Below are positions 26,719-60,472 of a stretch of 64,000 nucleotides of DNA, one piece after another. The position numbers and the translations under genes are program-made. The DNA is from Candidatus Poribacteria bacterium (lineage in GTDB: Bacteria; Poribacteria; WGA-4E; WGA-3G). The stretch is from contig CBDBFU010000023.1 of assembly GCA_965205025.1 (NCBI GenBank), positions 4,390-68,389 of the forward strand. Direction: 5' to 3'. The stretch's first letter is position 1. Each line of letters opens with the position of its first letter. Under the pieces are notes generated by a model. That model was not told where the DNA came from. It saw only the letters and a program-made list of their open reading frames with translations, and made no database searches.

Positions 26719-26759
26719 TAAAATACCTTCCCTAAGATAGTATTTGACATTAGAGCTCA

Positions 26760-29600
26760 TTATCTATTAACCGGGATGTCCCCAGAAAGTACTTTTTTCC
26801 AATTCCACAACAAAATCGTCCCATCTTCACCAGTAGTAGCAAGAGTGTTTCCATCATGTGAGAATAGGAGGGATTTTATTGGGGCAGTGTGTCCTCTTGA
26901 GAGAGTATGTATTTGCAGACCAGAATCAATCTCCAATATATTTACATCATGGCTCTTATAATCCACAGATAAAAGTTTTGATCCATCAGGAGAGAAAAGT
27001 AACATCTCGGAAGCAACTTGATCATGTAGGATATTATTAACCTCAACTTTGTCTGAATTTGTAATATCCCATATTTCAATAGTCTCCCATCTTTTTACTG
27101 CAATTAATCTACTATCATGTGAGAACTTTAGTATATCAGCATCAAACGGATAGGATACTATTTTATTCATTCTTGCAATATCCCAAATAGTTGTTTTTGC
27201 CTCACCCTCATATCTCCCACTTGCAGCAAGTTTTTGTCCATCTGGGGAAATAGCCATTGATCTAATATAACCAGTATTCTTTTTCATATCATCAAATAAA
27301 CTGAGTTCAAATAATTGGACACCTTCTCTTACATTTATGAAAGTTACAATAGGATATTGGTATGCGTATACAAGAATATCTTGGTTAGGTATAAAGTCAA
27401 AATGGGATGTGTATATCATAGAAGTATCCTCAGACATTACAACAGTAGGTAACTCCATATTGTTAATTAGATCGTATATTCTGACTTTATTTAATTGTTG
27501 TGTGGCAATAAGATTGGCTTTTTTGGATATACTGCCTTTCCATACATAAATGTTCTGGATTAAGGATGGTGTTAATTCTTTGCCTGTGTTTACACTCCAG
27601 TTTTGTATTTTCTTGCTTGAACCAGCACTCATGATAGTAGTATCATCTGGTGAAAATGCTATAGACTCTACAAAAGCTGTATGTCCTTCTGTCACAACGC
27701 GTTTATTATTTTTGTTAGCCAGATCCCATGAACGTATTGTCCCATCTTTGCTGCCACTGACAAGTGTTTTACCGTCTGGTGACAGAACCAGAGAAGTAAT
27801 TGTATATCTGTGTCCAATCAGTGTATTAAGTTCCTGACCCGAATTGACATCCCATACTTTTATATTTCCATTACCTCCACCGGTAATAATCTTTTTACCA
27901 TCATTTGAAAATACCAATGAATAGATCCAATTGGTATCATCTTCAAGTGTAACTTTTTCTTTCCCACTTATTAAATCCCAGATTATAACTTCTTTGTCTG
28001 GAACTACTGAAGCAAATAAGCTTTCGTCTTGAGAAATTGTTATTGCTTCTATAGGTTGGTCAATTTTCTTTTTAGGTTTCCTAAAGAAATTAAAAACCTT
28101 ATCCCAATTGATCCAATTAGAATGACCCCTAATTTTGTAGGATAGTGTGATCTTAGGAATTTCTCCATCAAAGTGAATATCTTTCTTACTAATTTCGCCA
28201 CTGTTATGGCCTATTATCATGAAACTATGATCGGAATTTATGGCATAGACAGCATCCCTATCAATATAATTTAGGGTTAAAGGACTCCTGGATTTAATAT
28301 CCCATAATGACAGATGTCCAGATATTCCATCTGATCTTATTCCATATAGAATATTTTCCCCTTTTGAATAAGAAACTATAGATCCTGGAGCATAAATTTG
28401 TGATGGGAGATAGGTCCTATTTAATATTTCAGCTTGTCTATGAAATATTGATTTCTGTTTACCTGTATGAATATCCCATATTTGAATACGACTATTATAA
28501 CCACAGGTGGTGAGAGATTTTCCATCAGTTGAAAAAGTTAATGCTGTTATATTTCTTGGTTGATTAAATTGGATTGGGATACCTTCCCCAGTTTCTATAT
28601 CATAAACCCACGCACCAACACTACTTCCAACTGCAAGTTTAGATCCATCGGGAGAGAATTGCATTACATTAATTCCACCCTTTCCAAGACGGTAATTAAC
28701 TTGTGGTGGTAATCCTTTAGAATGATATTCTGGATCTGGCTCAAGATCTTTTTGAATATCAGTAACCAAGTCAGGTATCTTATATTGTAACTTCTGTATT
28801 ACGTTGTAATCTTGAATTGGATTATTACTGATATGTAATACCTCTAAATTTTCAAGTTTACTTATCGGACTTACATCCATAATATTGTTATTGTTAATCC
28901 GTAAATCATATAGTTTAGAGAGAATACCGATTGGGTTAATATCACTAATCTGATTGTTAGCCAACTGTAGTCCTGTCAGTTGATGGATTTCATATAGTGG
29001 AGATATATCTTGAATTTGGTTCTTTTGAAGTGATAGATATTTCAAGCGTAACATACCTTTTAAGGGAGAAATATTCAGAATATTGTTCTCTTGAAGTGAT
29101 AAATATCTCAGTTTTCTAAGATTAGATAATGGACCAATATCTTGAATATTATTTCCTTGTAACATCAGGTATTCAAGCTGTTTTAATTCTCGTATCGGTG
29201 AAATATCATGTATGTGGTTATCATGCAGTAATAAAGCCGTAAGTTGAGATAATTGTGCCAATGGACCAATTTCACTAATGTCATTATTATAGAGATTCAA
29301 AAATTTTAATTGAGTCAATCCTCTTAAAGGCGATAAATCAGTGATATTATTCTCATTAAGATGTAAGGTTGTTAAACTTGTGAATTTTTCTAATCCAGTT
29401 AAATCATTTATATCTCTATTATGAGCATTAATGATTTTTAGCTTATCTATTTTGTTAATTGAAATACGAGAATTAGTTTTTAATTTTAGGGCTTCCCGAA
29501 TTACTTTAGCCAGATTCTCATCTGGAATATCAACAAATTCAGATGTAGTACAACTCATAAAAATTATACTAATCAATAATAATAGAATGATATTTTTCAT
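26760..29600 (-). CDS. LRR (internalin-like) + WD40 repeat putative lipoprotein
   Basis: 946 aa. MKNIILLLLISIIFMSC is a lipobox-like signal. About nine 22-residue LRRs (LxxLxxLxLxxNxIxDISPL) are followed by many WD40 units (GHxxxIxSLxFSxDGxxLxSGSxDGTIxxWD). Confidence 0.85.
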   Translation of the reverse strand: MKNIILLLLISIIFMSCTTSEFVDIPDENLAKVIREALKLKTNSRISINKIDKLKIINAHNRDINDLTGLEKFTSLTTLHLNENNITDLSPLRGLTQLKFLNLYNNDISEIGPLAQLSQLTALLLHDNHIHDISPIRELKQLEYLMLQGNNIQDIGPLSNLRKLRYLSLQENNILNISPLKGMLRLKYLSLQKNQIQDISPLYEIHQLTGLQLANNQISDINPIGILSKLYDLRINNNNIMDVSPISKLENLEVLHISNNPIQDYNVIQKLQYKIPDLVTDIQKDLEPDPEYHSKGLPPQVNYRLGKGGINVMQFSPDGSKLAVGSSVGAWVYDIETGEGIPIQFNQPRNITALTFSTDGKSLTTCGYNSRIQIWDIHTGKQKSIFHRQAEILNRTYLPSQIYAPGSIVSYSKGENILYGIRSDGISGHLSLWDIKSRSPLTLNYIDRDAVYAINSDHSFMIIGHNSGEISKKDIHFDGEIPKITLSYKIRGHSNWINWDKVFNFFRKPKKKIDQPIEAITISQDESLFASVVPDKEVIIWDLISGKEKVTLEDDTNWIYSLVFSNDGKKIITGGGNGNIKVWDVNSGQELNTLIGHRYTITSLVLSPDGKTLVSGSKDGTIRSWDLANKNNKRVVTEGHTAFVESIAFSPDDTTIMSAGSSKKIQNWSVNTGKELTPSLIQNIYVWKGSISKKANLIATQQLNKVRIYDLINNMELPTVVMSEDTSMIYTSHFDFIPNQDILVYAYQYPIVTFINVREGVQLFELSLFDDMKKNTGYIRSMAISPDGQKLAASGRYEGEAKTTIWDIARMNKIVSYPFDADILKFSHDSRLIAVKRWETIEIWDITNSDKVEVNNILHDQVASEMLLFSPDGSKLLSVDYKSHDVNILEIDSGLQIHTLSRGHTAPIKSLLFSHDGNTLATTGEDGTILLWNWKKVLSGDIPVNR

Positions 29601-29785
29601 ATTCTTAATATCTTGTAATTCTTTGTATTCAAATAATTCAGTTATGAATGAGTAATTTGTAACGGAATTAGTCGTTTTGAACTTGAAAAGGCGCGATAAT
29701 CCCTATTATAGAGTGGGTTTATATGGTATCTTATAGGTGAGAAATTTAGGAACTTTAACCCAAATTAAACACGAGTATACAAGTT

Positions 29786-30058
29786 ATACCATTTCTGGTA
29801 ATTAAAGTCTCATTAATAGAATCTCTATAATGTAGCACAAACTTCATGAGGATTAAGTTTTAAATTCGGTAATTCCCATTTTCCCAAACTTGGTAGGTTC
29901 GGTTTCCTAACCACGGGGAATGCTATATAGCATTCATACTGTTGATTCGAATTTCTAACACATTACCGAATTATTATTTTAATCTTCATCCAGTTTGTGT
30001 AGTATTTCAAGACATAAATATCACCCAATCGTGGGAGAATCATTTATAGAAATGGTAT
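29786..30058. mobile_element. composite nested-palindrome MITE (family A enclosing modules B, C, D, E)
   Basis: ATACCATTTCT (29786-29796) / AGAAATGGTAT (30048-30058). CACAAACTT | CATGAGGATTAAG ... TTAATCTTCAT | CCAGTTTGTG. Inner AATTCGGTAATT / CATTACCGAATT. Core GGTAGGTTCGGTTTCCTAACC plus palindrome GAATGCTA-TA-TAGCATTC (29918-29935). Confidence 0.75.
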
Positions 30059-30205
30059 TATTATTCTGATGTTCTTGCTAATCTAAATTGTATCAGAATC
30101 CGTCGGAAAAAATCAACTCATTACGGAGTATCCCTTGATATACTACTTGAATTCAAATTATAAATGTGATTTAATGCAACCATTATTTACCATACCATAA
30201 GGAGC

Positions 30206-30754
30206 TTGGGTATGTTTAATAGAATTGCAGGTATGATATTCATCATCTGTTTACTCTTAGTTGCGTGCTATGTTTTGTATCAATATGATACTGCACCTGC
30301 CAAGAAAGAAGCAGCCAAAAATGCTGAAATTGTGCATCAATGGGAAAGAGAGCAATCTAATACTGGCAGCACACCAGAAACAGTGTCACCCCAAGAAACT
30401 GTGGAAAGTGCGACACCAATCGCTTCGGTGAACCCCGAACATGAGTTACTCTTCCGTGTTCGAATCAAACTATATCAACAAGGTATTCAAGCTACAGGAG
30501 CAACTTATTTACGTAACGGACTAATTTATCCTATCATAAAAGGTGTCTGTTATGTTGAATGGGATACGGTGGAATATCCAGATGGCACTGTTAAAAGGTA
30601 TGTTTCTCGTTCTACAGGACATCCTGACGATCATTTCATGCGTGGAGCAAAGGGTCGTGTTTTAGAAAGTGATATTCCAAGTCACCTCAAAATTTACACA
30701 TACCCAGATGGGGGTATTGATCCCTATGAATTTTTAAATTTATCAAAGGAGTAA
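30206..30754 (+). CDS. membrane-anchored hypothetical protein
   Basis: 182 aa with a single N-terminal TM helix (IAGMIFIICLLLVACYVLY). No family recognised. Confidence 0.45.
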   Translation: MGMFNRIAGMIFIICLLLVACYVLYQYDTAPAKKEAAKNAEIVHQWEREQSNTGSTPETVSPQETVESATPIASVNPEHELLFRVRIKLYQQGIQATGATYLRNGLIYPIIKGVCYVEWDTVEYPDGTVKRYVSRSTGHPDDHFMRGAKGRVLESDIPSHLKIYTYPDGGIDPYEFLNLSKE

Positions 30755-30874
30755 TTTGAATTGCTTACACTCATTTATAATAAGATGAAAATCAAAAATG
30801 TATTCCGTTCACTCTTAAGTTATATTATTATTAACATACGTGATTCACGGAGAATTGGTATACTTTAAATTATA

Positions 30875-30895
30875 AACCCTTATACAATAAGGGTT
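30875..30895. terminator. candidate bidirectional terminator hairpin between convergent genes
   Basis: AACCCTTA-TACAA-TAAGGGTT (8-bp stem) in an A/T-rich context. It is nested inside an outer inverted repeat TTCACGGAG ... CTCCGTGAA. No clean U-tract. Confidence 0.35.
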
Positions 30896-30990
30896 CGTAA
30901 AATTGCTCCGTGAAGGTTTCCGTGAAAGTACAATCATCTCAGAACGATAAATATTAACACTTTTCCATTTATATTAACGGATACACAGTA

Positions 30991-33132
30991 CTATAACTTT
31001 GATGGTTCGATTACCAAGTCCGGTATAGGATTCCCCATTTTATCAGTTATACGAAAATAAAAACCCCAGCCACCAGTTTCTTCACATACCTTAACGAGAA
31101 TACTGTTTTTACCTGCTTTAAGAAATACAGGAAATTTATAGTCATCAATCTGAGCTGTGAAAGTTTCTGTATGTTGAAATATTGCTTTTCCATTGAACCA
31201 TACTTTTCCTTGATCATCTGAATCAAAACGGAATTGAACGACTTGATCTTTTGGTGAGATTACCGTTGTATATGCATAACCGACTGCCCAATCCACATCC
31301 TTTCCAAGATGAACATACCCATTGAAGATTTCATCCTTCCCATTCCTCCATTGGATTTTATCATATTTCCCTTCATATACTTCATCAGTGTTAAATTCGG
31401 TTAACTCTTCATTAATATATGATTTTTTACATCCATTACCCATCCTGTTATCAAAAGGACCAAGAACAATCCAGGAATCTTCCGTAATAAATGCTGTCTT
31501 GTTAATCTCTGTCCTTGCTTTTTCATTCATTCCATTTTCTTGATAAAAATCCGCTAAAGCTAATGTTGCATGATAATATGGTGATGAGTTATTAGGCATT
31601 AAGTCAATAATAGATTTCAACATTTCTGCATAAGTATCTTTATTTTTGATATTTTTACTGGTTTTTACAATCCGTTCAAACCATCTACGTTCCATAAATG
31701 GTAATCCAATAGATTCAATATTAGTTTCAATTAGGTGAAGGGCATCCCCAAATCGTTCATTAACAAGAAAAGCATGCCCGAGTGTAATAGTATTGTTTGA
31801 ATCATATCGATTACTGAATGCTAATAATGCACAATCTAAGGCTTCTTCAGGGAGTATATTCTTAGCGAGTAGAAATTCTGCAATTCTGTTATATTCAGTT
31901 GATTGATTTTTTAGATCCGCTAATATCCTCTCATTTTTATACCAGTTTTTGTATGCATTTTCTGCTTCCTTATGTTTGCCTAACTTTGAGTATGTATCTC
32001 CTAACAATTTAAACAAGACAATACTATCATCCATTGTTGGTTCTAAACCTTCAAGAATCTCAATCAGACTATTTTCCTTCTCTTGTAGAGTATATAGATT
32101 ACTTAGATCCAATAAAATGTTATCATGCTCAAACATAGTTAAATCGGCATCTAATGCTTGGAGGTACAGATTTTCTGCATCTGAAATACGTTTAGATTTA
32201 ACTAACGCCTGTGTCAAAATACGATAATATTCAAATATATTGGGATCTTTCTCAATTTTCTGTTCATAGATTCTTATAATCTCTTGAAACTGTTCAGGAT
32301 TTGCTTCAACAGGTTCAGGTTTAATATACTCGATAATTTTTGCGTTACCTTCAAAGAATCCAACATTATTATTTTGTGAGATGTCAGTAATAATTGAAAC
32401 ATTTTTCTTATCAAAGTTCCAATAAGCCACTAAACCATCTTCATTTCCATTCAATTTATTTTTTATAGAAATCTGTATTTCATCGCTTGTTAGTGCTTTG
32501 TTCCAAACGGATACATCGTCTATCTGACCAATAAAAGTTGAAAGTGCCACTATTTCTGTTTCATGGGCATGTCCTATCCGAAGTGGTAATTTACTTTCAT
32601 AGATTTCAGGATTCCAATTAAATCCATTACTTCCAACCTCCAATCCATCTATATATAGTTGCATTATATTATTCTCTGTATCAATGACACCTGCAATGTG
32701 AGTCCATTCATTTAACGAGACTGCCCCTGAATGTGAAAAGATATATCTTTCACCTTGACCTTTCGGTGAAAATGCAAATTGAATTGCACCATTACTGCGT
32801 AAAAATAGGGCGAAACTTCTATTGCTAATTTCAGGAGTACGTTTATCACCTTTATAGACAATAGATACATATTTGTTGGGAAATGCTATAGGTCTTATCC
32901 AAGCGGTAACCGTAATCTTCTGATTAATTGTATTCAATATATTACTATCAATGATTTCTACATAGCTATTGTTGCCGTCAAGATGGAGTGCAGAATCCAT
33001 AATTATGTTATCATTCTTGTCAATATTATTTTTGATATCATTCTGTGCATAAGAAATTGAATATAACGAAAACACAACTAAATTAATCGTAAGTAGAATT
33101 ATGGGTTGAAATCGGAGAATTTTTAAAGGCAT
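30991..33132 (-). CDS. secreted LamG + TPR-like helical + C-terminal jelly-roll protein (paralogue 2)
   Basis: 713 aa, signal peptide. Blocks shared with paralogue 1: FIGQIDDVSVWN, LLGDTYSK, WIVLGPFDNRMGNGCKKSYINE, GKNSILVKV...GGWGFYFRITD. Confidence 0.8.
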   Translation of the reverse strand: MPLKILRFQPIILLTINLVVFSLYSISYAQNDIKNNIDKNDNIIMDSALHLDGNNSYVEIIDSNILNTINQKITVTAWIRPIAFPNKYVSIVYKGDKRTPEISNRSFALFLRSNGAIQFAFSPKGQGERYIFSHSGAVSLNEWTHIAGVIDTENNIMQLYIDGLEVGSNGFNWNPEIYESKLPLRIGHAHETEIVALSTFIGQIDDVSVWNKALTSDEIQISIKNKLNGNEDGLVAYWNFDKKNVSIITDISQNNNVGFFEGNAKIIEYIKPEPVEANPEQFQEIIRIYEQKIEKDPNIFEYYRILTQALVKSKRISDAENLYLQALDADLTMFEHDNILLDLSNLYTLQEKENSLIEILEGLEPTMDDSIVLFKLLGDTYSKLGKHKEAENAYKNWYKNERILADLKNQSTEYNRIAEFLLAKNILPEEALDCALLAFSNRYDSNNTITLGHAFLVNERFGDALHLIETNIESIGLPFMERRWFERIVKTSKNIKNKDTYAEMLKSIIDLMPNNSSPYYHATLALADFYQENGMNEKARTEINKTAFITEDSWIVLGPFDNRMGNGCKKSYINEELTEFNTDEVYEGKYDKIQWRNGKDEIFNGYVHLGKDVDWAVGYAYTTVISPKDQVVQFRFDSDDQGKVWFNGKAIFQHTETFTAQIDDYKFPVFLKAGKNSILVKVCEETGGWGFYFRITDKMGNPIPDLVIEPSKL

Positions 33133-34449: not shown

Positions 34450-35262
34450 TTATTCATTTTTCCATCGTTTTACAGCATCCAATTTAGTTTGTTGCCAATC
34501 TGTCCAATCTTTTTTGCCTTCATATCTGACAACGTCATGTATTGTTGCACGTGGTTGATAAGTAATATAGTTCCCCGTATGCCATGCAAGATTCCTATAA
34601 ATCATAAAGTCACCGGGACCAAGGTGTACCTGTACAGCCCCAGGAAACTGTTGACAATGTTCCAAATTATAACGTTCGGCTTCCACATTTGACTGTCCTT
34701 CCTGCGGTTTTCGCAACTTCGGATCTTTTGTAGATTGTTCTTCTCCCGGCATATCCCATTGACGCAGATGACTTCCTGGTACAAACCATGTACAAGAATC
34801 AGAATAAATTGCACAATTTACCTGATTAAAGTGTCTTAGGTCATACCAGACTTCTGCTAACTTTGCCACGACCTGTTCATCTCTTGCTTCAAGAGGAACT
34901 TCAACAACACCATCACGATGCCAACCAATATGCCATGGATGTTCCAAAGGTTCAACTAACAAACCCATTATATCTACATGACCATGCGTATAGTCATCTC
35001 CAAGCAAATTCTGTATAGCATCTTTAAGTTCAGGAAGTTCTGTATAATCGTAGAATGGTTTCAGGTTCAGTTCATCACCATAATTTGAGAGTGGTTGAAT
35101 ACGTTGGGTTTGAGGACCATTAAGTTTGTGTGCCAGGTGTCGTGCTTTTTCAGCTTCTATGCGTAAATCTGTGAGTAATGATGGAGGAACAATGCCTCGA
35201 AGTATTAAATACCCTTGAGATAGATATTCATTCACCATATAGTTGTGAAATTTGAATGACAC
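34450..35262 (-). CDS. PhyH-family Fe(II)/2-oxoglutarate dioxygenase
   Basis: 270 aa (GTG start with GAGG RBS). HIGWHRDG HxD context and a distal AWHTG histidine. Confidence 0.7.
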   Translation of the reverse strand: MSFKFHNYMVNEYLSQGYLILRGIVPPSLLTDLRIEAEKARHLAHKLNGPQTQRIQPLSNYGDELNLKPFYDYTELPELKDAIQNLLGDDYTHGHVDIMGLLVEPLEHPWHIGWHRDGVVEVPLEARDEQVVAKLAEVWYDLRHFNQVNCAIYSDSCTWFVPGSHLRQWDMPGEEQSTKDPKLRKPQEGQSNVEAERYNLEHCQQFPGAVQVHLGPGDFMIYRNLAWHTGNYITYQPRATIHDVVRYEGKKDWTDWQQTKLDAVKRWKNE

Positions 35263-35476: not shown

Positions 35477-36934
35477 TTGTATATGTCTCAACCAAATTTG
35501 TTATACATTCACTCCGATCAACACAACCCCTATGTTACAGGTTGTTATGGGGATGATTTAGTAAAAACCCCTAATTTGGATAAATTAGCATCAGAAGGTG
35601 TTATATTAGATAATGTATATTGTCCATCTCCTATCTGTGTGCCATCCCGCATGTCTATGTTGACAGGTCGTTATCCTTATGAAAACCGAGTTTGGACGAA
35701 TAGTCATATACTTGATTCGGGTATTCCAACATTTGCTCATGGGATGGGTGCAGCAGGATATGAACCAGTTCTAATTGGTCGTATGCACGCATTGGGTCCA
35801 GATCAACTTCACGGATATACAGAAAGATTAGTTGGAGATCACGGACCAAATCATCCTGGTGGAATAGGAGTTGATCACGGTGAGCTGTCTGGAACAGCAG
35901 GACCTGCAAGAGTTAGTCTTGTAAAATCAGGACCGGGACAAAGTGCCTATCAGGTACACGATGAAGATGTAACAGCTGCTACAATTGATTATATGAATAG
36001 ACTTGGGATTCAGAAAAAAGCAGGACTCCTGAAAAAACCCTTTTCAATTTCAATCGGTTTTATGTTACCACATCAACCATTTGTTGCAAGAAAAGAGGAT
36101 TATGAACTTTATGAAGATATTATGACAATGCCACAACATCCTGAAACATATTCAGATAGTTTACATCCATATTTTAAGTGGTGGCGTGACAAGTGTGGAA
36201 TTACAGATGTGGAAAATGATGAGATAATACGCGCTCGGACTGCATATTGGGCACTGGTTACACGCATGGATATAATGATAGGACAAATATTGACTGCACT
36301 TCAGGATAACAATCTTGACGAAAATACACTCATAATCTATAGTTCTGATCATGGAGAACAGGTAGGTGAACATGGTCTTTGGTGGAAACAGACATTCTAT
36401 GAACACTCAGTAAAAGTGCCGGCGATTCTATCGTGGCAAGGAGTTTTACCTGAAGGTGAACGCTGTGAAAGAGTCATTAGTTCTTTGGATATAAATGCTA
36501 CTATAATTGATGCACTTGATTGTCCATCCCTACCTAATTCACGAGGTAGAAGCCTATTACCACTATTAAAAAATGAAGATACCGACTGGGAAAATATTGC
36601 ATTTTCAGAATACTGCACTGATGATAATTGTTATCATAGAATGATACGACAAGGAGATTGGAAACTGAATTATTATCATGGTCAACCATCACAACTGTTT
36701 AACCTTAAGGAAGATCCTAATGAATTGCAGGACAAAACTGATGATCCAAAATGTCAGGATATTAAGAATGAACTAACCAAGAAAGTATTGGATGGTTGGA
36801 ATCCTGAAAAAATAAAACTTCAGATGGAAGAGAAGAAATTAGATACTCAAATACTTGGTAGATGGACTCGGAATACCAAACCTGTTGATCATTATAGATG
36901 GACTCTCTTACCAGAGATGGATTATTTGGATTAA
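35477..36934 (+). CDS. formylglycine-dependent sulfatase
   Basis: 485 aa. YIHSDQHN and the CxPxR motif PICVPSRMSMLTGRY. C-terminal SDHGE. The start is ambiguous (TTG 35477 or ATG 35483). Confidence 0.85.
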   Translation: MYMSQPNLLYIHSDQHNPYVTGCYGDDLVKTPNLDKLASEGVILDNVYCPSPICVPSRMSMLTGRYPYENRVWTNSHILDSGIPTFAHGMGAAGYEPVLIGRMHALGPDQLHGYTERLVGDHGPNHPGGIGVDHGELSGTAGPARVSLVKSGPGQSAYQVHDEDVTAATIDYMNRLGIQKKAGLLKKPFSISIGFMLPHQPFVARKEDYELYEDIMTMPQHPETYSDSLHPYFKWWRDKCGITDVENDEIIRARTAYWALVTRMDIMIGQILTALQDNNLDENTLIIYSSDHGEQVGEHGLWWKQTFYEHSVKVPAILSWQGVLPEGERCERVISSLDINATIIDALDCPSLPNSRGRSLLPLLKNEDTDWENIAFSEYCTDDNCYHRMIRQGDWKLNYYHGQPSQLFNLKEDPNELQDKTDDPKCQDIKNELTKKVLDGWNPEKIKLQMEEKKLDTQILGRWTRNTKPVDHYRWTLLPEMDYLD

Positions 36935-36981
36935 AAAAATGACTATCCTTTATTACCTCATTAACTAATTTGGAGACAACA

Positions 36982-37845
36982 ATGACTAATAGTCCAATTT
37001 TAAAAGGTGAACCTTTCAGTGAAGAGAAGACTTTAGAAATTGCAGAACAATTCTTCAAAGAGGGATATGTCCATATCCCTGGTGTTCTCACCGATAATGA
37101 AGTTTCTGCATTAAGAGATAAGTCAGATGAATTATTTGATGATCCAGAATTGATGGAGAGAACTAATCCTGAACTGGCAGATGTACGTTATATCCAGATG
37201 GGGAGTCATGCAGAATCAGGTAATACACTCCCATTCATACTTCGAAACACAATTGAGCTTGATCCGATATTTCGTGATATGCTTCTCCGTGAACCTATAC
37301 TCAGTCTTGCAGAAGCCATTGTAGGGAAGAATTGCAAATTTTGTGGACAGAATGTACTTAGAAATCTCCCTGGTCTTTCAATCAGTACTTGGCATGTGGA
37401 TGGATCTGTTCATTTTCCAGTAACAGATGAGATGCCACAACATGATCCACGTTTAAGGATGCCTGTAATGTGGTTCACCGTTCAAATGGCGTTAAATGAC
37501 ATTGACACTATAGAAGAGGGACCGACACAATATGTCCCAGGTAGTCATTTCTCAGGAAGAAATCCTAACGATCAAGAAAATCCAGAATTTAATGGAAATA
37601 AACCTGTATCCATCTTCTGTAAAGCAGGGGATATTTATCTACAAGATCCACAGTGTTGGCATCGTGGTGCCCCCAATAATTCTGATAAAACACGTTATAT
37701 CCTCCAATCACAGTATGCAGCATATTGGGCATATTGGCGATTTAGTTTATGTAATGATGTACCTGTTTCGGAAGAAGAGCTAAAATCAGCAGATGATGAA
37801 TTGTTACGTTTGTTGGGTCGAAGTAGACCAAATGGTTCAGATTGA
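36982..37845 (+). CDS. PhyH-family Fe(II)/2-oxoglutarate dioxygenase
   Basis: The track start is TTG 36970, but ATG 36982 follows a TGGAGA RBS. STWHVDG HxD motif and a distal CWHRGAPN. Confidence 0.7.
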   Translation: MTNSPILKGEPFSEEKTLEIAEQFFKEGYVHIPGVLTDNEVSALRDKSDELFDDPELMERTNPELADVRYIQMGSHAESGNTLPFILRNTIELDPIFRDMLLREPILSLAEAIVGKNCKFCGQNVLRNLPGLSISTWHVDGSVHFPVTDEMPQHDPRLRMPVMWFTVQMALNDIDTIEEGPTQYVPGSHFSGRNPNDQENPEFNGNKPVSIFCKAGDIYLQDPQCWHRGAPNNSDKTRYILQSQYAAYWAYWRFSLCNDVPVSEEELKSADDELLRLLGRSRPNGSD

Positions 37846-42085: not shown

Positions 42086-43000
42086 TTAACCGGTAGCATA
42101 ATCATCAGGATTGTTCTTACGCCAATTAGGCAGATATCCTTCTGTGTGTCCGAATCCATAAGAAGGTCCAATTTGGTTCACACTTGACCAGGGCCATGCC
42201 TGCCCTCCAATTAAACGAAATTCATCACCTTTTCCACATAACCAATAGAACATATGTGCAACATATCTTGCTATACCATGTCCACCATATTCTGCTGTTT
42301 GAAAATCGAAATCAGGTTCATGTATCCAATCACGATTTGGCTTCTCAGTTCGCCAATAACTGTATTTCAACATATGTCTTAATCCAGATGCTGTTGATTC
42401 ACCACGACGATGTAAAATACTTTGGGAGTGAATGACAAATGATCCAGCAGGTCCATCACTTGAGACACCTTTCTCAGTTATATCACGATGTGTTGGTGAA
42501 ATATGTGATCCGGGTAATATCTCTGTCGGTCCCAATTCCATAGAAGTATCTTGTGGAAAATAAAACACTTCGACGAAGTTTGTTTCAGGACCAAATACGT
42601 GATCGGCATCGTGATGCCATTCTTGTGCAGGCATTGGACATTCTACACGGTGATTACTAACTAAAACTGGTAGACCAACATTATTACCAAGTAATGAACG
42701 TAATGCTCCAGCGAGTTCCTTATTCAGAAGCACATGCTCAATATACCAATCTTCAAGTAGAAGAGTACTGGGTTCGTGTGTATCTCTCATCCTTTCTAAA
42801 TCAGCATGTGTCAATCCTTTTGGGATATAACAAGGATTTATAGGTAAATCACCGTTTAGATAATCAAAAGTACGTTGGTTAATCTCTTCTGGGACAACAC
42901 CCTTTAATTGGAGAAAACCATCACGGCAATATTGGAGTACCTGTGAGTCGGTGAGTGTCGGTTGACAATCAAAAGTACGATTTGTTTTATCATATTTCAT
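42086..43000 (-). CDS. PhyH-family Fe(II)/2-oxoglutarate dioxygenase
   Basis: 304 aa. EWHHDADH HxD motif and a distal ILHRRG. Confidence 0.7.
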   Translation of the reverse strand: MKYDKTNRTFDCQPTLTDSQVLQYCRDGFLQLKGVVPEEINQRTFDYLNGDLPINPCYIPKGLTHADLERMRDTHEPSTLLLEDWYIEHVLLNKELAGALRSLLGNNVGLPVLVSNHRVECPMPAQEWHHDADHVFGPETNFVEVFYFPQDTSMELGPTEILPGSHISPTHRDITEKGVSSDGPAGSFVIHSQSILHRRGESTASGLRHMLKYSYWRTEKPNRDWIHEPDFDFQTAEYGGHGIARYVAHMFYWLCGKGDEFRLIGGQAWPWSSVNQIGPSYGFGHTEGYLPNWRKNNPDDYATG

Positions 43001-54674: not shown

Positions 54675-55055
54675 CTAAATAGGTACAAGGTCTATTTCAA
54701 CTGTATTTGGAGTGTAGTGGTCTGCAATTCTTGCTCCAGTCTGTAATTGAAGTACTGCTTCAGATGCATCAACATCACCTCGTTTTAATTCCAAAGGGAC
54801 ACCAATTAGACAATTCTTCACATCATCAATATGAAATAAGATGAAATCACATTGGTTGCTTCTCGCTTTGTCTGTGGGATAAGCTTTATCTACATCTAAT
54901 ACTACACGGTTTACAGGTTTAGACCTTAGATTAGCCATTGAAACGGTACATCCTTTTCTGGTATAGGATTTTGCATTACTGTTACCTACCCATTTCTTTA
55001 TCTGATTAAGTGTATCAATTGGATTCACTACGACTCTTGCCTTTCTTTCTCTCAT
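54675..55055 (-). CDS. small PD-(D/E)xK-like putative nuclease, partner of the upstream ATPase (possibly frameshift-truncated; extended frame reaches 54526)
   Basis: 126 aa. CDFILFH...(19 aa)...PLELKRGD fits D-x(n)-E-x-K. The start overlaps the ATPase 3' end by 41 nt. After the TAG stop (54675-54677), another frame stays open for 50 codons (LVHGGSLHRVQRDKLKK...VLVKLIRR, stop 54526-54528). One extra T in the T-run would fuse them. Confidence 0.55.
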   Translation of the reverse strand: MRERKARVVVNPIDTLNQIKKWVGNSNAKSYTRKGCTVSMANLRSKPVNRVVLDVDKAYPTDKARSNQCDFILFHIDDVKNCLIGVPLELKRGDVDASEAVLQLQTGARIADHYTPNTVEIDLVPI

Positions 55056-56475
55056 ATCGTTGTTGAAGATTTACAGTACGGTTGTATAGTCCTTCAGCAA
55101 CATCCTCATAATCCTGTGGGGAGATACCTTCTATAGATTTAAATGGTATCTCTTTCACTGTTTCGTTCTTTTGAAAATGCCATACGCCTACTTCTTCAGG
55201 CACTAACCAACAATCAGATTTATCCGAATTTTCATCAATTAATCCTTCAAGAACAAGGTTTCCTATTTCCTGGAGCAACCAATCACTATGTGTTGTTGTT
55301 ATAACTCTAACACCAGCTCTAACAAGATATGCGAGTATCACAGCCATGTCTGCTTGTGCACCTGGATGAAGATGAGCTTCTGGTTCTTCTATGATTAGTG
55401 TATCTCCAGGATTAAGAATTCCTCTAATAAATAAAACAACTGGAGCTAATTCAATCACCATCGATGATGATTGGCTTAACGGTATGTCTTTTTCACTCTC
55501 ATTAAAGGTATACCGTACATCAGGATTGCCACTAACAGATGATTTTAACTGGATTTTACCTTGTAGTATCTTGTTTTCTAATATTCCAGCAATATAATGC
55601 ATATCACTGTCAATATTTTTGTTTTCTTCATATAGAATTATCTTAGCCAAGAAATCCGTTAGAACACTTGACATCGTAGGTATATTAGATAATTCTTCGA
55701 CACCTATACGTGTAGTATGTCTAACCATAGAACTTGCAATCACTCTGTGACTTTGCATTAGACCACTACGTGCGCCAGGAAGATAATATCGACAATGTTT
55801 TCTTCCTTCAATAGTAATTTCTGACTTGCCTTCATGTTCTGGTAAGATGATGGTTATAGCATGATTCTTAGGGATTAAAACCTGTTCATCACTTGATGAA
55901 TAGGTCAAATCCAAATCAGATTCATCTGAACCTAAAGAATGCATACTTATATTCCAATATATTTTATTGTCTGACTCAATTTTTAACGAGATTGACATAG
56001 GATTATGTTGTTTTTTTAACACTCGATTAAGATTTGAAATTGAATCTAAATCAAAGCAATTTATGAGTTCTTCTTGTAAAGTCTTTTTAAAGGAATCTAT
56101 AGTAAAATAATTGTGTATACTTTCATGCATACTTTTTGGAAGATCCGATAATAAAAATGATCTGTCAATCATTGCCATTTTCCGTTGGATAATGTGCTTT
56201 TCTTCTTTTAACAAATCTTGACCATTTAATAATTCTCTCAGTAAAGGTTCAAGACTACTTGGTTCAGAATTATAGATTAGATTTGGACCTGTAAAGTCGT
56301 TAAATACTCCATGCAGAACATACATCAAGGTGGCAAGATATGTTTTTCCAGTATTACTCGGACCAACAAACACAGTCAAGGGACGCAGATCAATGTTGGC
56401 TTCGTGAATTGGTCCAAAATTTTTGACTTCAATACCTATCTTCAATTCTTGACTGGAGTCTTCTTTCTTACTCAT
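55015..56475 (-). CDS. ABC-type (AAA_15/AAA_21, OLD/RecF-like) ATPase, putative defence-system motor
   Basis: 486 aa, AAGGA RBS. Walker A VFVGPSNTGKTY, signature-like LSQSSSMVIELAP, Walker B/D-loop TLIIEEPEAHLHPGAQ, H-loop ITTTHSDWLL. Confidence 0.75.
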   Translation of the reverse strand: MSKKEDSSQELKIGIEVKNFGPIHEANIDLRPLTVFVGPSNTGKTYLATLMYVLHGVFNDFTGPNLIYNSEPSSLEPLLRELLNGQDLLKEEKHIIQRKMAMIDRSFLLSDLPKSMHESIHNYFTIDSFKKTLQEELINCFDLDSISNLNRVLKKQHNPMSISLKIESDNKIYWNISMHSLGSDESDLDLTYSSSDEQVLIPKNHAITIILPEHEGKSEITIEGRKHCRYYLPGARSGLMQSHRVIASSMVRHTTRIGVEELSNIPTMSSVLTDFLAKIILYEENKNIDSDMHYIAGILENKILQGKIQLKSSVSGNPDVRYTFNESEKDIPLSQSSSMVIELAPVVLFIRGILNPGDTLIIEEPEAHLHPGAQADMAVILAYLVRAGVRVITTTHSDWLLQEIGNLVLEGLIDENSDKSDCWLVPEEVGVWHFQKNETVKEIPFKSIEGISPQDYEDVAEGLYNRTVNLQQRYERKKGKSRSESN

Positions 56476-56538: not shown

Positions 56539-57909
56539 TTAAAAAAATGTAAGATACGGTTTGCCTTCTATCTCGCGGAGCAACAATAGTGCAAGTTCTC
56601 TTCCATGATAGTCTCCCCACATAGATGCCTCTCCACATGGTATTTTTCTATCTTCTGGAACATAGTCCCACCCGTTGGGTCTGTGATATACTGAATGAAG
56701 AAGTAAACCTTGATGTGTTTCTGAGGCTGATAAATAGGGTTCATCAAAGAGAGTGTTTGCTACTGTTAAACCAGCTTGGTAGTATTTGGAACTTGATTCT
56801 TCTTCACCATGTTTTGAAAGGAAGTTCCCATATCTAATTAACCCTTGTGCCGCGATTGCTGCAGCAGAACTATCAACGGGTTCATAATCATTGTATGGTT
56901 CGGACGGAATTGATAGGTAATCTCCTAATTCAACCAGACCCGGAGCCCCTGTATCCCAGTAAGGTATTCCATCCTGTGCTGTGTTCTCAATGAAGAAATC
57001 TGCAGTTGCTTCAACTGCTTTCCTCATATGGGATGTCACTTCGAACTTCCCACCAAAAGAATCAAGGTCATCATCAGACAATGTATCAAAAAACTCAAGC
57101 TGCTCTGCATAACCTGTTATAATCCATGCTAAACCACGAGTCCAGGTAGAAAATGGGGAATAACCTTGTTGTGTACTGGGACATCGGTAATTTCCATCAT
57201 TAGTATTGAAGATAGATTCATGAACTACCCGTCCCCGAATATCAAAAGCATCACGACCTTCACCGTAGTAAACATTATACTTAGCAGTTGTTTGAGAATG
57301 TTGGATTAACCGTTCCAATAAGTTTATTGCTACATCACCTTCACCCATAAGGACAGCCCCAAGTGTATGTCCTATAGCTAATACACGTAATGAACGTATG
57401 GTATCTGAGAATAAAGAATGTGGTCCGTTGAAAGAAGCAATATAACCTGCTCCATCCTTAATCTCTGTCCATCGACTCGCTTGTACGGCTGCTGAAGATT
57501 TCAAAGCAATTTCATAAAAGTGCATTTCATTTTCATCAGTTGGGATAACACCTTCCCGCATAAGTCGACAAAGATTACCATAAGTGGAGACGTTATTAAA
57601 CCCGTGATCATGTACGCCAATATGTGTAACATGTGGATGCATTTTTTCAATAGTGTTCCGTCTTCCAATTTCTAAGAATTGTTCATCCCCAGTTGCATCA
57701 TATTGAAGAATAGCAGATCCAAATTGAAATCCTTGCGTCCATTCTGTCCATCCTCTGGTTGTGTATGTACCAGCAACTGTAAAAACAGGTGTGCCATTTT
57801 CTGGTAGCCAAGTGTCTTCAATTGACAATATTTTTTCACCTGAAAACTCAAAAAACCTGTCTATTTTGGTTTTCAGATCATGTATCTTTAATGAATTGTT
57901 TATCTTCAT
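56539..57909 (-). CDS. GH88-like unsaturated glucuronyl hydrolase ((alpha/alpha)6 barrel)
   Basis: 456 aa. The TRGWTEWTQGFQFG and GVHDHGFNN motifs resemble the GH88/GH105 catalytic region. The family call was made from motifs only. Confidence 0.5.
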   Translation of the reverse strand: MKINNSLKIHDLKTKIDRFFEFSGEKILSIEDTWLPENGTPVFTVAGTYTTRGWTEWTQGFQFGSAILQYDATGDEQFLEIGRRNTIEKMHPHVTHIGVHDHGFNNVSTYGNLCRLMREGVIPTDENEMHFYEIALKSSAAVQASRWTEIKDGAGYIASFNGPHSLFSDTIRSLRVLAIGHTLGAVLMGEGDVAINLLERLIQHSQTTAKYNVYYGEGRDAFDIRGRVVHESIFNTNDGNYRCPSTQQGYSPFSTWTRGLAWIITGYAEQLEFFDTLSDDDLDSFGGKFEVTSHMRKAVEATADFFIENTAQDGIPYWDTGAPGLVELGDYLSIPSEPYNDYEPVDSSAAAIAAQGLIRYGNFLSKHGEEESSSKYYQAGLTVANTLFDEPYLSASETHQGLLLHSVYHRPNGWDYVPEDRKIPCGEASMWGDYHGRELALLLLREIEGKPYLTFF

Positions 57910-57945: not shown

Positions 57946-58440
57946 TCAAGATGTTCCATACTGTTCACATATTACTTCAATCAAGTTAGTTGTTGATTTA
58001 CCTGGAACATTAATACCTACAACTACCTTACCACCATTTTCTTCAACAATTTCTCTTTCTACAAGCTGCTCTAATTTGTAATCTCCACCTTTTACATGAA
58101 TGTTTGGTTTGAGATCTGAAAGTAATTCGATTGGTGTCAATTCAGGAAATATCACAACATAATCAACACATGCTAATCCTGCTAACATCTCTGCTCGTTC
58201 ATCCTCAGGAACAAGTGGACGATTCTCTCCTTTGAGTTGTCTAACAGAATCATCACTGTTAACAGCGACAACAAGAAGATCCCCCATCTTCCTTGCAGCC
58301 TGAAGATAACGTAAATGACCTAAGTGTAATACATCAAAACAACCATTTGTTGTTACGACAATTCTGCCTTGTTTTCTAAGGTCATTTAACTGCAATGATA
58401 GTTCAGATCGTGTATATATTTTCTTCTGTGTCATTATCAA
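57946..58440 (-). CDS. rfaE2: RfaE domain II-type D-beta-D-heptose 1-phosphate adenylyltransferase (cytidylyltransferase fold)
   Basis: 164 aa. TNGCFDVLHLGHLRYL...LVVAVNSDDSVRQLKGENRP...VKGGDY...GKSTTNLI matches HldE C-domain motifs. Confidence 0.8.
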   Translation of the reverse strand: MIMTQKKIYTRSELSLQLNDLRKQGRIVVTTNGCFDVLHLGHLRYLQAARKMGDLLVVAVNSDDSVRQLKGENRPLVPEDERAEMLAGLACVDYVVIFPELTPIELLSDLKPNIHVKGGDYKLEQLVEREIVEENGGKVVVGINVPGKSTTNLIEVICEQYGTS

Positions 58441-58504
58441 CTTTACTTTATAAGTACTTTTTAAAAATTGCTGTCAAAATTGTTGATGTTATATTCATAC
58501 ATTA

Positions 58505-58533
58505 TTGCATATTCACTATACTTTTGCTATAAT
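58505..58533 (+). promoter_or_regulatory. candidate sigma70 promoter of the EF-Tu-like gene
   Basis: TTGCAT (58505-58510), exactly 17 nt, then TATAAT (58528-58533). It lies 55 nt upstream of ATG 58589. Confidence 0.5.
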
Positions 58534-58588
58534 AAACAAACACTAAAACAAAATCCATCCACATCATACAATTCCTTACGGTGTAAAA

Positions 58589-59746
58589 ATGAATAAGAAA
58601 AAGACATCCATTCATCAATCGTTACCTATATGCATGCTTGGTGCTAATGGACATGGTAAGACTACGTTAACAACTGGTATGGAAAGAGTCGTTGAAAAAA
58701 TTGGAACAATTCGTTCAGATACCAATACTGATTTTGCTGATCAGTTGCCAAATCACCACCAGATATGTGAAGGAGTTGGTTTTACTTTTCGATCTATTGA
58801 CTATGAAACAAGCGGAAAACACTATACACAGATAGATTGTAATACACATCAGGATATAATAAAATTATTAGTTAGTGGTACTCTGGATATTCAAGGTGCA
58901 ATATGGGTAGTCGATGCAGATGAAGGTGTAACGCCAGAATCTGAAGAACTGGTTTATATTGCCAATCGTGTTAAAGTATCCAATATTGTATCATTCTTAA
59001 ATATTCATAATACCGATGACAGTGAGTTAGTAAATATCTGTCAACATGAAATGAGAGAATTACTCACTGAATGTGGATGGAATGAGAATAATTCACCAAT
59101 ATTAGTTGGTGATGCACATAATACATTAAACTATAAAACTGTAAATTTGGGTTCAGACCAATGGAAACCTATCGTTGATACCATTTCTGCATTAAACAGC
59201 ATAATGCCGGATCCAATTGATAAATCACATCTTCATCTGGTTTTACCTATACATGAAATTGTGAAGGAAAGTAAAGAGACTGTGACATTTTCAGGTGAAT
59301 TAATACAAGGTCATCTTTCTGTAGGTCAATCCATTGATATTGTTGGCAAAGGAGACAGGGTTAAAACAAAATGTTTAAATATTAAAGAAGATGAAATAAC
59401 AGTAGAATCTGAACCAGACTGGTTATCTGTTGGACAGGTTGTATGTTCCCCAAAGACTATAAAAGCACATACAGAATTTATAGCTATTGTTTATTTACTA
59501 AGCCAGGAAGAAAGCGGAACACATATCCCTATAATTCAAAATGATAAGCTTGATATCCACCTATGGGGTATAGATGTTCATGCACGTGTTCAACTTCCAC
59601 CAGAACTATCAATCATATCTCCAGGATCAAATTGTGAGCTTTCTATTTACCTTGATCTTCCTCTTGTGATGGAAGTTGGTACAACATTCGAAATAAAAAA
59701 GATGGATCTGAGAATCGGTTTGGGAATCGTAACAGAAGTTACATAA
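58589..59746 (+). CDS. divergent EF-Tu-like protein with degenerate GTPase motifs
   Basis: 385 aa, collinear with EF-Tu domains I-III. P-loop GANGHGKT is kept. Switch I RGITI is replaced by EGVGF, DCPGH by DCNTH, NKCD by NIHN, and SAL by DAH. Domain III blocks KAHTEFIAIVYLLSQEESGTHIP and RIGLGIVTEV are conserved. Confidence 0.75.
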   Translation: MNKKKTSIHQSLPICMLGANGHGKTTLTTGMERVVEKIGTIRSDTNTDFADQLPNHHQICEGVGFTFRSIDYETSGKHYTQIDCNTHQDIIKLLVSGTLDIQGAIWVVDADEGVTPESEELVYIANRVKVSNIVSFLNIHNTDDSELVNICQHEMRELLTECGWNENNSPILVGDAHNTLNYKTVNLGSDQWKPIVDTISALNSIMPDPIDKSHLHLVLPIHEIVKESKETVTFSGELIQGHLSVGQSIDIVGKGDRVKTKCLNIKEDEITVESEPDWLSVGQVVCSPKTIKAHTEFIAIVYLLSQEESGTHIPIIQNDKLDIHLWGIDVHARVQLPPELSIISPGSNCELSIYLDLPLVMEVGTTFEIKKMDLRIGLGIVTEVT

Positions 59747-59764
59747 AGTTCTTCTTGGTTCAAT

Positions 59765-60472
59765 TTAATTCACAATCTTAAGTACATCATTGAGTAAGAG
59801 ATCACCTGTATATAAAGCACGTCCTATAATAGCACCAGATACTCCAATGTTTTTCAAGGATTCTATATCTGAAAGAGATGTAACCCCTCCCGATGCAATG
59901 ACATTTGCAGAAACAGCATCCACTATTTCTGCGGTTGCTTTTAGATTAGGACCTTTCAACATTCCATCACTTTTTATATCTGTATATATCAAAGTCTGAA
60001 CTACCGAAAGTTCTTTTGCAAAATGTATAGCAGATTTTTCAGACACTTCTAACCAACCATCTGTGGCGACCATTCCATCTCTCGCGTCAATTCCAACTGC
60101 AATTCTTTCACCGTATAAATCACATGCTTCTGATACAAGATTAGGTTGTTTTAAGGCTGCTGTACCCAAAATTGCTCTATCAACCCCTAATTCCAGAACA
60201 ACCTTGATCTGCTCGATATTTCTAATGCCGCCACCAAGTTGTGTAGGAATTGTAACTTCAGAGACGATCTCACCAACTATCTTTAGGTTTGCTGATACAC
60301 CTTGAAATGCTCCATCAAGATCGACAAGGTGTAGGTATTCTGCTCCTTCCGATTCCCATCTTAGTGCCATATCAACAGGATTATTAGAAAAAACTGTTTC
60401 TTGTTCAGCAATACCTTGGATCAGATTAACACATTTTCCACCACGTAGATCAATTGCGGGTAATATTTTCAC
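59765..60472 (-). CDS. hisA: ProFAR isomerase HisA
   Basis: 235 aa. MKILPAIDLRGGKCV ... GGGIR ... ASGGV are typical HisA (beta/alpha)8 phosphate-binding motifs. Confidence 0.85.
   Translation of the reverse strand: MKILPAIDLRGGKCVNLIQGIAEQETVFSNNPVDMALRWESEGAEYLHLVDLDGAFQGVSANLKIVGEIVSEVTIPTQLGGGIRNIEQIKVVLELGVDRAILGTAALKQPNLVSEACDLYGERIAVGIDARDGMVATDGWLEVSEKSAIHFAKELSVVQTLIYTDIKSDGMLKGPNLKATAEIVDAVSANVIASGGVTSLSDIESLKNIGVSGAIIGRALYTGDLLLNDVLKIVN

Follow-up and report, generated by a model that had tools for sequence, protein, structure and literature searches.

The 64,000 nucleotides of Candidatus Poribacteria contig CBDBFU010000023.1 analysed here (referred to in full as the window) contain, at positions 58589..59746 of the forward strand, an open reading frame of 385 codons plus stop whose product descends from the bacterial elongation factor EF-Tu and has lost most of the motifs of a GTPase. 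The gene belongs to the first of three poribacterial clades (A, B and C) of a family of putative pseudo-GTPases derived from a translational GTPase, for which we found no published description: the GTPase fold is kept, several G motifs are lost, and the gene is under purifying selection. We consider it probable that the family represents a phylum-specific, non-cycling pseudo-GTPase that arose from EF-Tu and carries a remodelled, strongly conserved binding face on domains II and III. EF-Tu is among the most conserved and best-studied proteins, and the retention of a switch-dead derivative throughout this sponge-associated phylum, under purifying selection, points to an unrecognised role for the EF-Tu scaffold.

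Descent from EF-Tu and the fate of the G motifs

The descent of the protein is evident from its alignment. In HMMER searches, practically every EF-Tu chain in the PDB is collinear with residues 14-384 (E = 2e-52 to 1e-43), and identity to E. coli EF-Tu is about 29%. This agrees with a preceding reading of the window made from the sequence only (hereafter the sequence-only reading), which had proposed collinearity with bacterial EF-Tu and had quoted the peptides GANGHGKTTLT, HYTQIDCNTHQDI, KAHTEFIAIVYLLSQEESGTHIP and FEIKKMDLRIGLGIVTEV, all of which are present, as is the 385-residue reading frame that it had delimited. Pfam GTP_EFTU (PF00009) matches residues 13-184 with 68.7 bits against a gathering threshold of 26.5 (E = 6.5e-19), and GTP_EFTU_D3 matches residues 290-384 (1.8e-11). 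The three-domain architecture is recovered in the AlphaFold2 (AF2) model, which aligns to EF-Tu structures over approximately 390 columns with a probability of 1.00. The four EF-Tu models are the top NCBIfam matches, followed at a distance by EF-1alpha (48 bits) and SelB (TIGR00475, 43.9 bits). However, TIGR00485 reaches 195.3 bits against a cut-off of 522.4, and NF009372, NF009373 and NF000766 reach 201.5-205.1 bits against cut-offs of 449-479. Because its best NCBIfam matches fall so far below their cut-offs, the protein clearly comes from bacterial EF-Tu and yet does not qualify as an EF-Tu.

EF-Tu is an essential factor, and on this ground the view is supported that the window protein is a paralogue and not the product of the housekeeping tuf. 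A tblastn search with E. coli EF-Tu against the window and 86 further poribacterial loci (about 1.5 Mb) returned the EF-Tu-like paralogue as the sole match, and the 64-kb window holds no translation genes that would lead to a tuf locus. A poribacterial EF-Tu has been used in a published concatenated tree, in a paper that gives no sequence.

The G motifs were compared with HMMER and in two MAFFT alignments, one with 120 family members and one with 105 canonical EF-Tus. The Walker A or G1 P-loop is retained as GANGHGKTT (residues 18-26, 58640..58666), and across the three clades the residues of its GxxxxGK[ST] signature (G18, G23, K24 and T25) vary little or not at all. The former switch I (G2) reads EGVGF for RGITI (58769..58783), with Gly in the place of Thr61. 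Of the 120 clade A members, 98 have G here, 21 have S and one has N; clade B carries Tyr or a different residue and clade C carries Pro. The switch I threonine of EF-Tu, which coordinates Mg2+ and senses the gamma-phosphate, is accordingly absent from all clades. What is left of G3 is DCNTH for DCPGH (58835..58849), in which Asp80 and His84 (the catalytic histidine of EF-Tu) are kept and Gly83 (its switch II glycine) is replaced by Thr. Throughout clade A D80 is invariant and position 83 is T in 116/120, and the four commonest states of position 84 are H (93), Y (15), N (5) and Q (4 of 120). The DxxGH pattern is therefore broken, and even His84 is substituted in at least 24/120 clade A members and in several clade B subclades, the replacements seen in several subclades being Y, N, Q, D or P. 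The G4 remnant NIHN (59000..59011) preserves of NKCD the asparagine alone: N135 is invariant in clade A, K136 has become T, I or P, and position 138 varies among G, N, D and S. At G5, DAH stands for SAL (59111..59119); Ser173 is lost, and D occupies this position in 116/120. The window protein thus has neither the NKxD nor the SAx motif of guanine specificity, and Walker A, Asp80 and Asn135 are the sole G-motif elements kept throughout the three clades.

The substitutions EGVGF, DCNT, NIHN and DAH had already been named in the sequence-only reading, and each is borne out by the alignments; machine alignment does not restore intact G2-G5 motifs. Its claim that G2-G5 are lacking applies to Thr61, Gly83, Lys136/Asp138 and Ser173, but goes too far in that Asp80, His84 and Asn135 remain, so that G3 and G4 are not wholly absent.

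Domains II and III were said to be retained as well. This holds for domain III (residues 290-385, 59456..59743), which carries the motifs ESGTHIP, ND-K-P, LW and KKM on the former T-stem-binding face, but not for domain II, which is heavily remodelled and in which the Pfam D2 domain was undetected. Fourteen residues are missing from it by alignment (E. coli ~260-273, the strands of the aminoacyl pocket), close to the dozen or so first estimated. We take the aminoacyl/CCA-end pocket and the 5'-phosphate site to consist of H66, E215, D216, F218, T228, E259, F261, R262, N273 and R288. The window protein has S, H, E, V, S and K at the positions from H66 to E259, lacks F261, R262 and N273 by deletion and has V for R288, and this pattern is common to clade A. 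Since the residues of the pocket and of the 5'-phosphate site are replaced or deleted, classical carriage of aminoacyl-tRNA is unlikely in clade A, and the idea of a tRNA binder, as first put forward, loses its classical form there with the destruction of the pocket. To judge from these residues, the protein presumably does not deliver aminoacyl-tRNA.

The turnover is uneven along the protein. When retention is counted at positions at least 90% conserved among the 105 canonical EF-Tus, clade A keeps 0/15 in helix C and 0/6 at the N-terminus; for switch II and switch I the figure is 21-27% and for domain II 25%, while the P-loop strand (54%), beta-4 (60%) and helix D (50%) are kept better; Lys89 and His319 are retained and invariant. 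Helix C with His118 is the core of the EF-Ts interface in the EF-Tu:EF-Ts structure, and its complete turnover argues against EF-Ts binding. A function as an EF-Ts sponge was rejected for the same reason, as none of the 15 canonical invariant residues of helix C is found in clade A and His118 is not conserved.

Conservation has meanwhile been established elsewhere. An entropy scan of clade A gives a mean H of 0.05 for VGKGDRVKT (residues 252-260), its most conserved 9-residue stretch, which includes the domain II motif GKGDRVKT (residues 253-260, 59345..59368), and a mean H of 0.13 for VESEPDWLS (residues 272-280, 59402..59428), which adjoins the 14-residue deletion. The most conserved stretches of the clade comprise VGKGDRxKT, VESEPDW, EESGTHIP and FExKKM, together with the P-loop and the hairpin after the former switch I. 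Canonical EF-Tu holds the acceptor and T stems of the tRNA at the place where these new domain II/III motifs lie, and we read this face as remodelled, not abandoned.

Distribution, selection and the three clades

The EF-Tu-like family is found only in Candidatus Poribacteria. Of 5.8 billion proteins searched, 277 matched at E <= 1e-10; the best 120 show 56-100% identity and, apart from a few with longer gene calls, have 383-388 residues. All named family members are Candidatus Poribacteria, and they are annotated as 'hypothetical protein' or 'GTP-binding protein'. A scan of genomes, with one genome per GTDB species, found 183 relatives; the best 80 of these are metagenome-assembled genomes or complete chromosomes of Poribacteria, with the exception of four labelled only 'uncultured bacterium', and intact orthologues are present in at least 80 Poribacteria species genomes.

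The reading frame is intact in 87/87 loci (385-394 codons, with one longer start call). Two neighbours serve as markers of synteny: the convergent hisA (59765..60472, reverse strand; Pfam His_biosynth 4.7e-79) lies downstream in 76/87 loci, and a divergent cytidylyltransferase-like gene (57946..58440, reverse strand; Pfam CTP_transf_like 1.3e-20) lies upstream in 56/87. The pairwise ratio of nonsynonymous to synonymous substitution rates (dN/dS) among the four closest relatives is 0.11-0.15, compared to 0.09-0.14 for hisA, and that of the cytidylyltransferase gene falls in the same range. The EF-Tu-like gene is thus under purifying selection and vertically inherited. The sequence-only reading had left room for a pseudogenised duplicate without conserved orthologues, and the intact copies and the low dN/dS dispose of it. 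Nevertheless, the EF-Tu-like protein diverges faster than its neighbours (55-65% identity versus 74-90%), and the mean Kimura distance within clade A is 0.38 versus 0.26 among sampled canonical EF-Tus named for several phyla.

An exhaustive HMMER search of 1.84 billion cluster representatives yielded only two full-length representatives with scores above the ordinary EF-Tu level, P0121 (48% identity) and P0122 (38%), below which the scores drop to about 150 bits at about 30% identity. These two stand for the two further poribacterial clades. Clade B comprises about 60 clusters, many of them on contigs of 2-6.5 Mb; clade C comprises 14 clusters, whose members are named 'GTP-binding protein' or 'elongation factor Tu [Candidatus Poribacteria bacterium]'. 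Beneath clade C there is a steep drop in score to canonical EF-Tus (about 43% identity) from Chloroflexota, Gammaproteobacteria and Atribacteria, and among these nearest canonical EF-Tus none is named Poribacteria. Neighbour-joining bootstrap support is 100% for A+B+C and 100% for A+B, and the three clades have the derived residues G15C, D21G, M91L, M98I, P111V, G325N, Y326D, R333W, R377K and E378K in common.

The motif losses are stepwise across the three orthologous clades C, B and A. Clade C, with the motifs GHFGHGKT, ESGIPIA, DCVNH, NKID and SAK and the pocket residues EDVF, has lost Thr61 and Gly83 only. In clade B, G4 reads NKAE, NQTE or NKTE and G5 reads DAE or DAL, the pocket is replaced, and some subclades are without His84 or His22. 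Clade A, with REGVGIT, DCETH, NT-x-G/N and DA-x and with the 14-residue deletion, has gone furthest in motif loss. The clades C, B and A offer a natural series in which the earliest constraints to be given up on the way from translational GTPase to pseudo-GTPase can be seen.

The clades appear best read as orthologues of different poribacterial lineages, with one copy per genome, because no chromosome length is common to the approximately 14 clade B and more than 40 clade A chromosomes and because one sponge sample contains a clade A genome and a clade B genome on different circular contigs. The neighbours differ between clades and include hisA, peptidase M20, AP_endonuc_2, SNase and hisD. P0475, a member of clade B, has hisD as the convergent neighbour where clade A has hisA, and in clades B1 and C the gene is repeatedly followed by a peptidase M20 gene, directly or after AP_endonuc_2. 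These hisA/hisD and M20 contexts (L092 9299-10603; L005 11231-12472; L087 11241-13566) may be remnants of an ancestral arrangement.

The gene is monocistronic in every clade. Its putative promoter lies in a block (58498..58536, forward strand) that is kept in four relatives (the window, L007, L008 and L009) amid variable intergenic DNA. It consists of TTGCAT (58505-58510), a 17-nt spacer and TGcTATAAT (58525-58533), in which TG at 58525-58526 turns the TATAAT (58528-58533) into an extended -10 element. A scan for promoter consensus sites did not list this site of the EF-Tu-like gene, because its -35 box agrees with TTGACA at 3/6 positions only. The stop codons of the gene and of hisA are separated by 18 bp (59747-59764), in which no terminator-like hairpin was found, so that the two transcripts probably overlap. 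Hence the promoter, the monocistronic gene and its convergence with hisA, all of which had been claimed at the outset, are upheld. A leader RNA or riboswitch was rejected, since an Rfam search of the 64-kb window gave no matches, the window has no tRNAs and the 5' untranslated region is only about 50 nt long. A horizontal origin was rejected in view of the uniform GC content along the locus and the conserved synteny, and a functional link of the gene to hisA or to the cytidylyltransferase was rejected as unsupported.

Predicted structure and possible function

The structure was predicted with AF2 from the 87-sequence family alignment, with a canonical EF-Tu (P0335) as control at the same alignment depth. 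The model of the window protein has a mean predicted local distance difference test (pLDDT) score of 79.7, with most of the G domain at 84-95 and domain II at 55-77, and forms a beta-hairpin from the former switch I (pLDDT 86-90). Its best PDB matches are open, GDP-form EF-Tus at template modelling (TM) scores of 0.70-0.74, including EF-Tu(GDP) on Balon-bound hibernating ribosomes; GTP-form EF-Tus are absent from its top 50 structural matches. The control came out differently, with a helical switch I of low confidence (pLDDT 49-55), TM scores of 0.88-0.90 with closed GTP forms (1ob2, 1exm, 1eft and 1ttt) and only about 0.55 with GDP forms. A bias of AlphaFold to the commoner GDP-form structures was rejected as an explanation because the canonical control came out closed. 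As modelled, this difference speaks for a protein held in an open-like state. The earlier suggestion of a protein 'frozen in one state' is in accordance with this model and with the loss of Thr61 and Gly83 in every clade.

Every sampled Poribacteria genome keeps an intact copy, and the protein must therefore do a new job. Judging by its motifs, it presumably no longer cycles between GTP and GDP states. It would be permanently open and GDP-like, with the former switch I fixed as a beta-hairpin. The P-loop probably still holds a nucleotide or another phosphate ligand without base specificity, which is possible since Walker A, Asp80 and Asn135 are universal. The protein would then act as a stoichiometric binding module through its domain II/III face (GKGDRxKT, ESEPDW, ESGTHIP and KKM), and our preferred guess is a non-cycling regulator associated with the ribosome or with RNA. 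Helix D of EF-Tu is linked to the bL12 contact. Through its half-retained helix D, the protein might, although we hold this with low confidence, dock with domain I to bL12 in the manner of open EF-Tu(GDP) on hibernating ribosomes. Open EF-Tu(GDP) binds such ribosomes via Balon, bL12's C-terminal domain and helix h5 of the 16S rRNA (PMC10901736), and this hibernation complex provides a precedent for a cellular role of the open EF-Tu state.

Several points weigh against this reading. Nucleotide binding and the absence of hydrolysis are deduced from motifs only. The window protein and 93/120 clade A members have His84, and as this residue is kept together with the universal Walker A, Asp80 and Asn135, some turnover of nucleoside triphosphates (NTPs) is possible. 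Across the contexts of all clades, no conserved operon partner or neighbour hints at a ribosomal or any other role, and the conservation of helix D may be purely structural. A TM score of about 0.73 with a root-mean-square deviation of about 9 Å is an approximate fit to open EF-Tu, and domain II is modelled at the low pLDDT given above. The search of the window and the 86 loci found no canonical tuf of the same genomes.

A more far-reaching scenario is doubtful. Here the family would have originated once, in the stem lineage of the phylum, and would have been kept as a single copy in every descendant, as a permanently open mimic of EF-Tu that binds the ribosome (at the bL12 stalk or in the region of the A site) or RNA without a nucleotide cycle, for example as a dedicated partner when ribosomes are parked or hibernate, or in the regulation of translation. 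It would then be the first EF-Tu-derived pseudo-GTPase family of bacteria, and its clades would preserve the order of loss, from the gamma-phosphate sensors through base specificity to the tRNA pocket.

Other explanations for the motif pattern have to be considered. On the one hand, the protein could be an active NTPase of changed specificity (for ATP or any NTP) that cycles by a non-canonical switch. The universal Walker A, Asp80 (the equivalent of Walker B) and Asn135 of all three clades are compatible with such an enzyme, as are the retention of His84 in most members and the NKAE/NQTE/NKTE forms of G4 in clade B. The latter follow the NxxE pattern, which is likened to that of the ATP-preferring YchF/OLA1 branch of GTPases. 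However, Thr61 and Gly83, the two universal gamma-phosphate sensors, are gone in every clade, His84 itself has given way to Y, N, Q, D or P in several subclades, positions 136-138 vary freely in clade A, which speaks against a defined base pocket, and the model has a rigid hairpin in the place of switch I, so that we regard this explanation as unlikely. On the other hand, the protein might carry or sequester tRNA or an unusual aminoacyl-tRNA without a GTP cycle, and perhaps feed a non-ribosomal, aminoacyl-tRNA-dependent enzyme. The T-stem face of domain III, with its family-wide, charge-raising substitutions R377K and E378K and the invariant His319 and Lys89, would suit a carrier. Clade C even keeps the EDVF pocket residues and T228, clade A has conserved basic or aromatic residues (Y/H215, R228 and K259) at pocket positions, and non-enzymatic binding of aminoacyl-tRNA has been proposed for aSelBL, a derivative of archaeal SelB (Atkinson et al., PMC3037878). 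Yet clades A and B have the strands of the pocket deleted or replaced and are without R288, which binds the 5' phosphate; conservation of the residues that contact tRNA, as seen in aSelBL, is lacking; and no tRNA, aminoacyl-tRNA synthetase or aminoacyl-tRNA-dependent transferase is a conserved neighbour. A carrier of this kind, which would be analogous to the proposal for aSelBL, seems quite improbable.

A role as guard or, as proposed in the sequence-only reading, as decoy for EF-Tu-targeting toxins or phage factors is disfavoured by the single-copy, vertical, phylum-wide inheritance of the gene at a fixed locus among housekeeping genes, and a dN/dS of about 0.12 gives no hint of an arms race. 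In its favour, toxins are known to use EF-Tu as target or cofactor, and the Tse6 and CdiA complexes with EF-Tu are among the structural matches; the divergence of the protein exceeds that of its neighbours, and a variable AAA_15/AriA-like cassette lies 2-3.5 kb upstream in 36/87 loci. That cassette, however, comes and goes independently of the EF-Tu-like gene, and the sole PADLOC match of the latter is marginal (PDC-M02B, E = 1.7e-4 over 70 residues). By PADLOC-DB match and island context the gene does not fall among anti-phage defence genes; with no more than this marginal match, a defence role was rejected as the main explanation, and we regard the decoy as very improbable. Finally, the gene might be the only EF-Tu of the organism or a decaying pseudogene copy, a suggestion we find scarcely credible. 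All that speaks for it is that neither the 64-kb window nor any of the 86 poribacterial loci showed a canonical tuf. The pseudogene version is refuted by the intact copies in all loci, the low dN/dS and the conserved promoter. An only EF-Tu is very unlikely at 195 bits against the TIGR00485 cut-off of 522 and in a context without ribosomal-protein genes or str operon, and it is established that a factor without Thr61, Gly83, NKxD and an aminoacyl pocket cannot support GTP-dependent decoding.

The remaining window and comparison with known EF-Tu relatives

Apart from the EF-Tu-like gene, the window holds several features of interest. The AAA_15 cassette (54675-56475, reverse strand) sits between conserved genes. 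It consists of a 486-residue AAA_15/AAA_21 ATPase at 55015-56475 (PADLOC PD-T4-4_A 1e-33, AriA 7e-28) and a 126-residue open reading frame at 54675-55055 that overlaps the ATPase gene and lies downstream of it. It is present in 36/87 syntenic loci, its copies are 40-55% identical to each other, and it has the look of a variable, two-gene candidate for defence at a hotspot. A 456-residue protein (56539-57909, reverse strand) is 77-93% identical across Poribacteria; its Pfam match is sub-threshold only (Glyco_hydro_88, E = 1e-4), so that this conserved protein resembles an enzyme but has no firm family. An N6/N4 DNA methyltransferase is encoded at 3157-4119 (reverse strand; N6_N4_Mtase 3e-49), for which no partner restriction enzyme was identified.

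At 24562-33132 (reverse strand), a 946-residue protein with leucine-rich repeats (LRR) and a WD40 beta-propeller (26760-29600) is encoded between two Laminin_G_3 proteins of about 720 residues. These belong to the eukaryote-like repeat proteins that have been reported for Poribacteria. A DDE-family transposase gene (DDE_Tnp_1, 22222-23280, forward strand) lies amid metabolic genes. Four paralogous PhyH-family dioxygenases (1390-2424, 34450-35262, 36970-37845 and 42086-43000), a sulfatase (35477-36934) and several GFO/IDH/MocA oxidoreductases are also found in the window, an expanded set that probably serves the breakdown of sulfated or modified carbohydrates.

Literature searches found no description of a poribacterial EF-Tu-derived family. 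The initial statement that no described family has this motif set is consistent with this and with the NCBIfam EF-Tu scores far below their cut-offs. The annotation of the family is inconsistent, ranging from 'hypothetical protein' and 'GTP-binding protein' to 'elongation factor Tu', and the last label is misleading. With bacterial EF-Tu (TIGR00485) the protein shares the three-domain fold, Walker A, Asp80, Asn135, Lys89 and His319. It differs in that helix C (the EF-Ts face), the N-terminus and the aminoacyl pocket are not conserved, and it is modelled open where the canonical control is modelled closed.

One of the two closest parallels in kind is aSelBL ('EF-Pyl'), which has degenerate G2 and G3 and no conserved catalytic His and whose degree of disruption follows phylogeny; it has been suggested that aSelBL is no classical GTP-hydrolysing factor (Atkinson et al. 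2011, PMC3037878). Like aSelBL, the poribacterial protein is an EF-Tu-family translational GTPase paralogue with a disrupted G domain. However, aSelBL comes from archaeal SelB and the poribacterial protein from bacterial EF-Tu, and the pattern of loss is reversed: in aSelBL the P-loop is often deleted while domains II and III and the residues for aminoacyl-tRNA and ribosome are kept, whereas the poribacterial protein has kept the P-loop and lost the tRNA pocket. Membership in aSelBL does not fit, as the selB model TIGR00475 gives 43.9 bits versus about 200 for the EF-Tu models and all members of the family are bacterial.

Among bacteria, actEF-Tu was the sole distinct EF-Tu-like subfamily in a 2015 survey (Atkinson 2015, PMC4342817). 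The poribacterial family resembles actEF-Tu, or EF-Tu3, of the Actinomycetales in being a lineage-restricted, divergent EF-Tu copy. actEF-Tu keeps its G motifs and is still a GTPase, in contrast to the poribacterial family, which has lost them. The other close parallel, the eukaryotic Ski7, is a pseudo-GTPase paralogue of Hbs1/eRF3 that has lost the switch and the catalytic function and is re-used as a binding adaptor for the exosome and the Ski complex. Both Ski7 and the poribacterial protein belong to the EF1A/EF-Tu family, but to different subfamilies, and they are related only at the superfamily level.

The loss of the switch in EF-Tu-like proteins is wider than Poribacteria, because the exhaustive search found many other full-length EF-Tu-like representatives of clusters at 50% identity (among P0123-P0270) without Thr61 and/or the glycine of DxxG, for example a 'GTP-binding protein' of Myxococcus (WP_267698135.1, P0146) and an 'elongation factor Tu' of Priestia megaterium (P0129). 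To our knowledge these proteins are uncharacterised. They mostly keep NKxD and SAL, unlike the window protein, to which they are only about 25-32% identical; they do not group with the poribacterial family, and none of them has its signature motifs. Our finding may thus point to a wider, undescribed class of switch-dead EF-Tu-like proteins, from which the poribacterial family stands apart.

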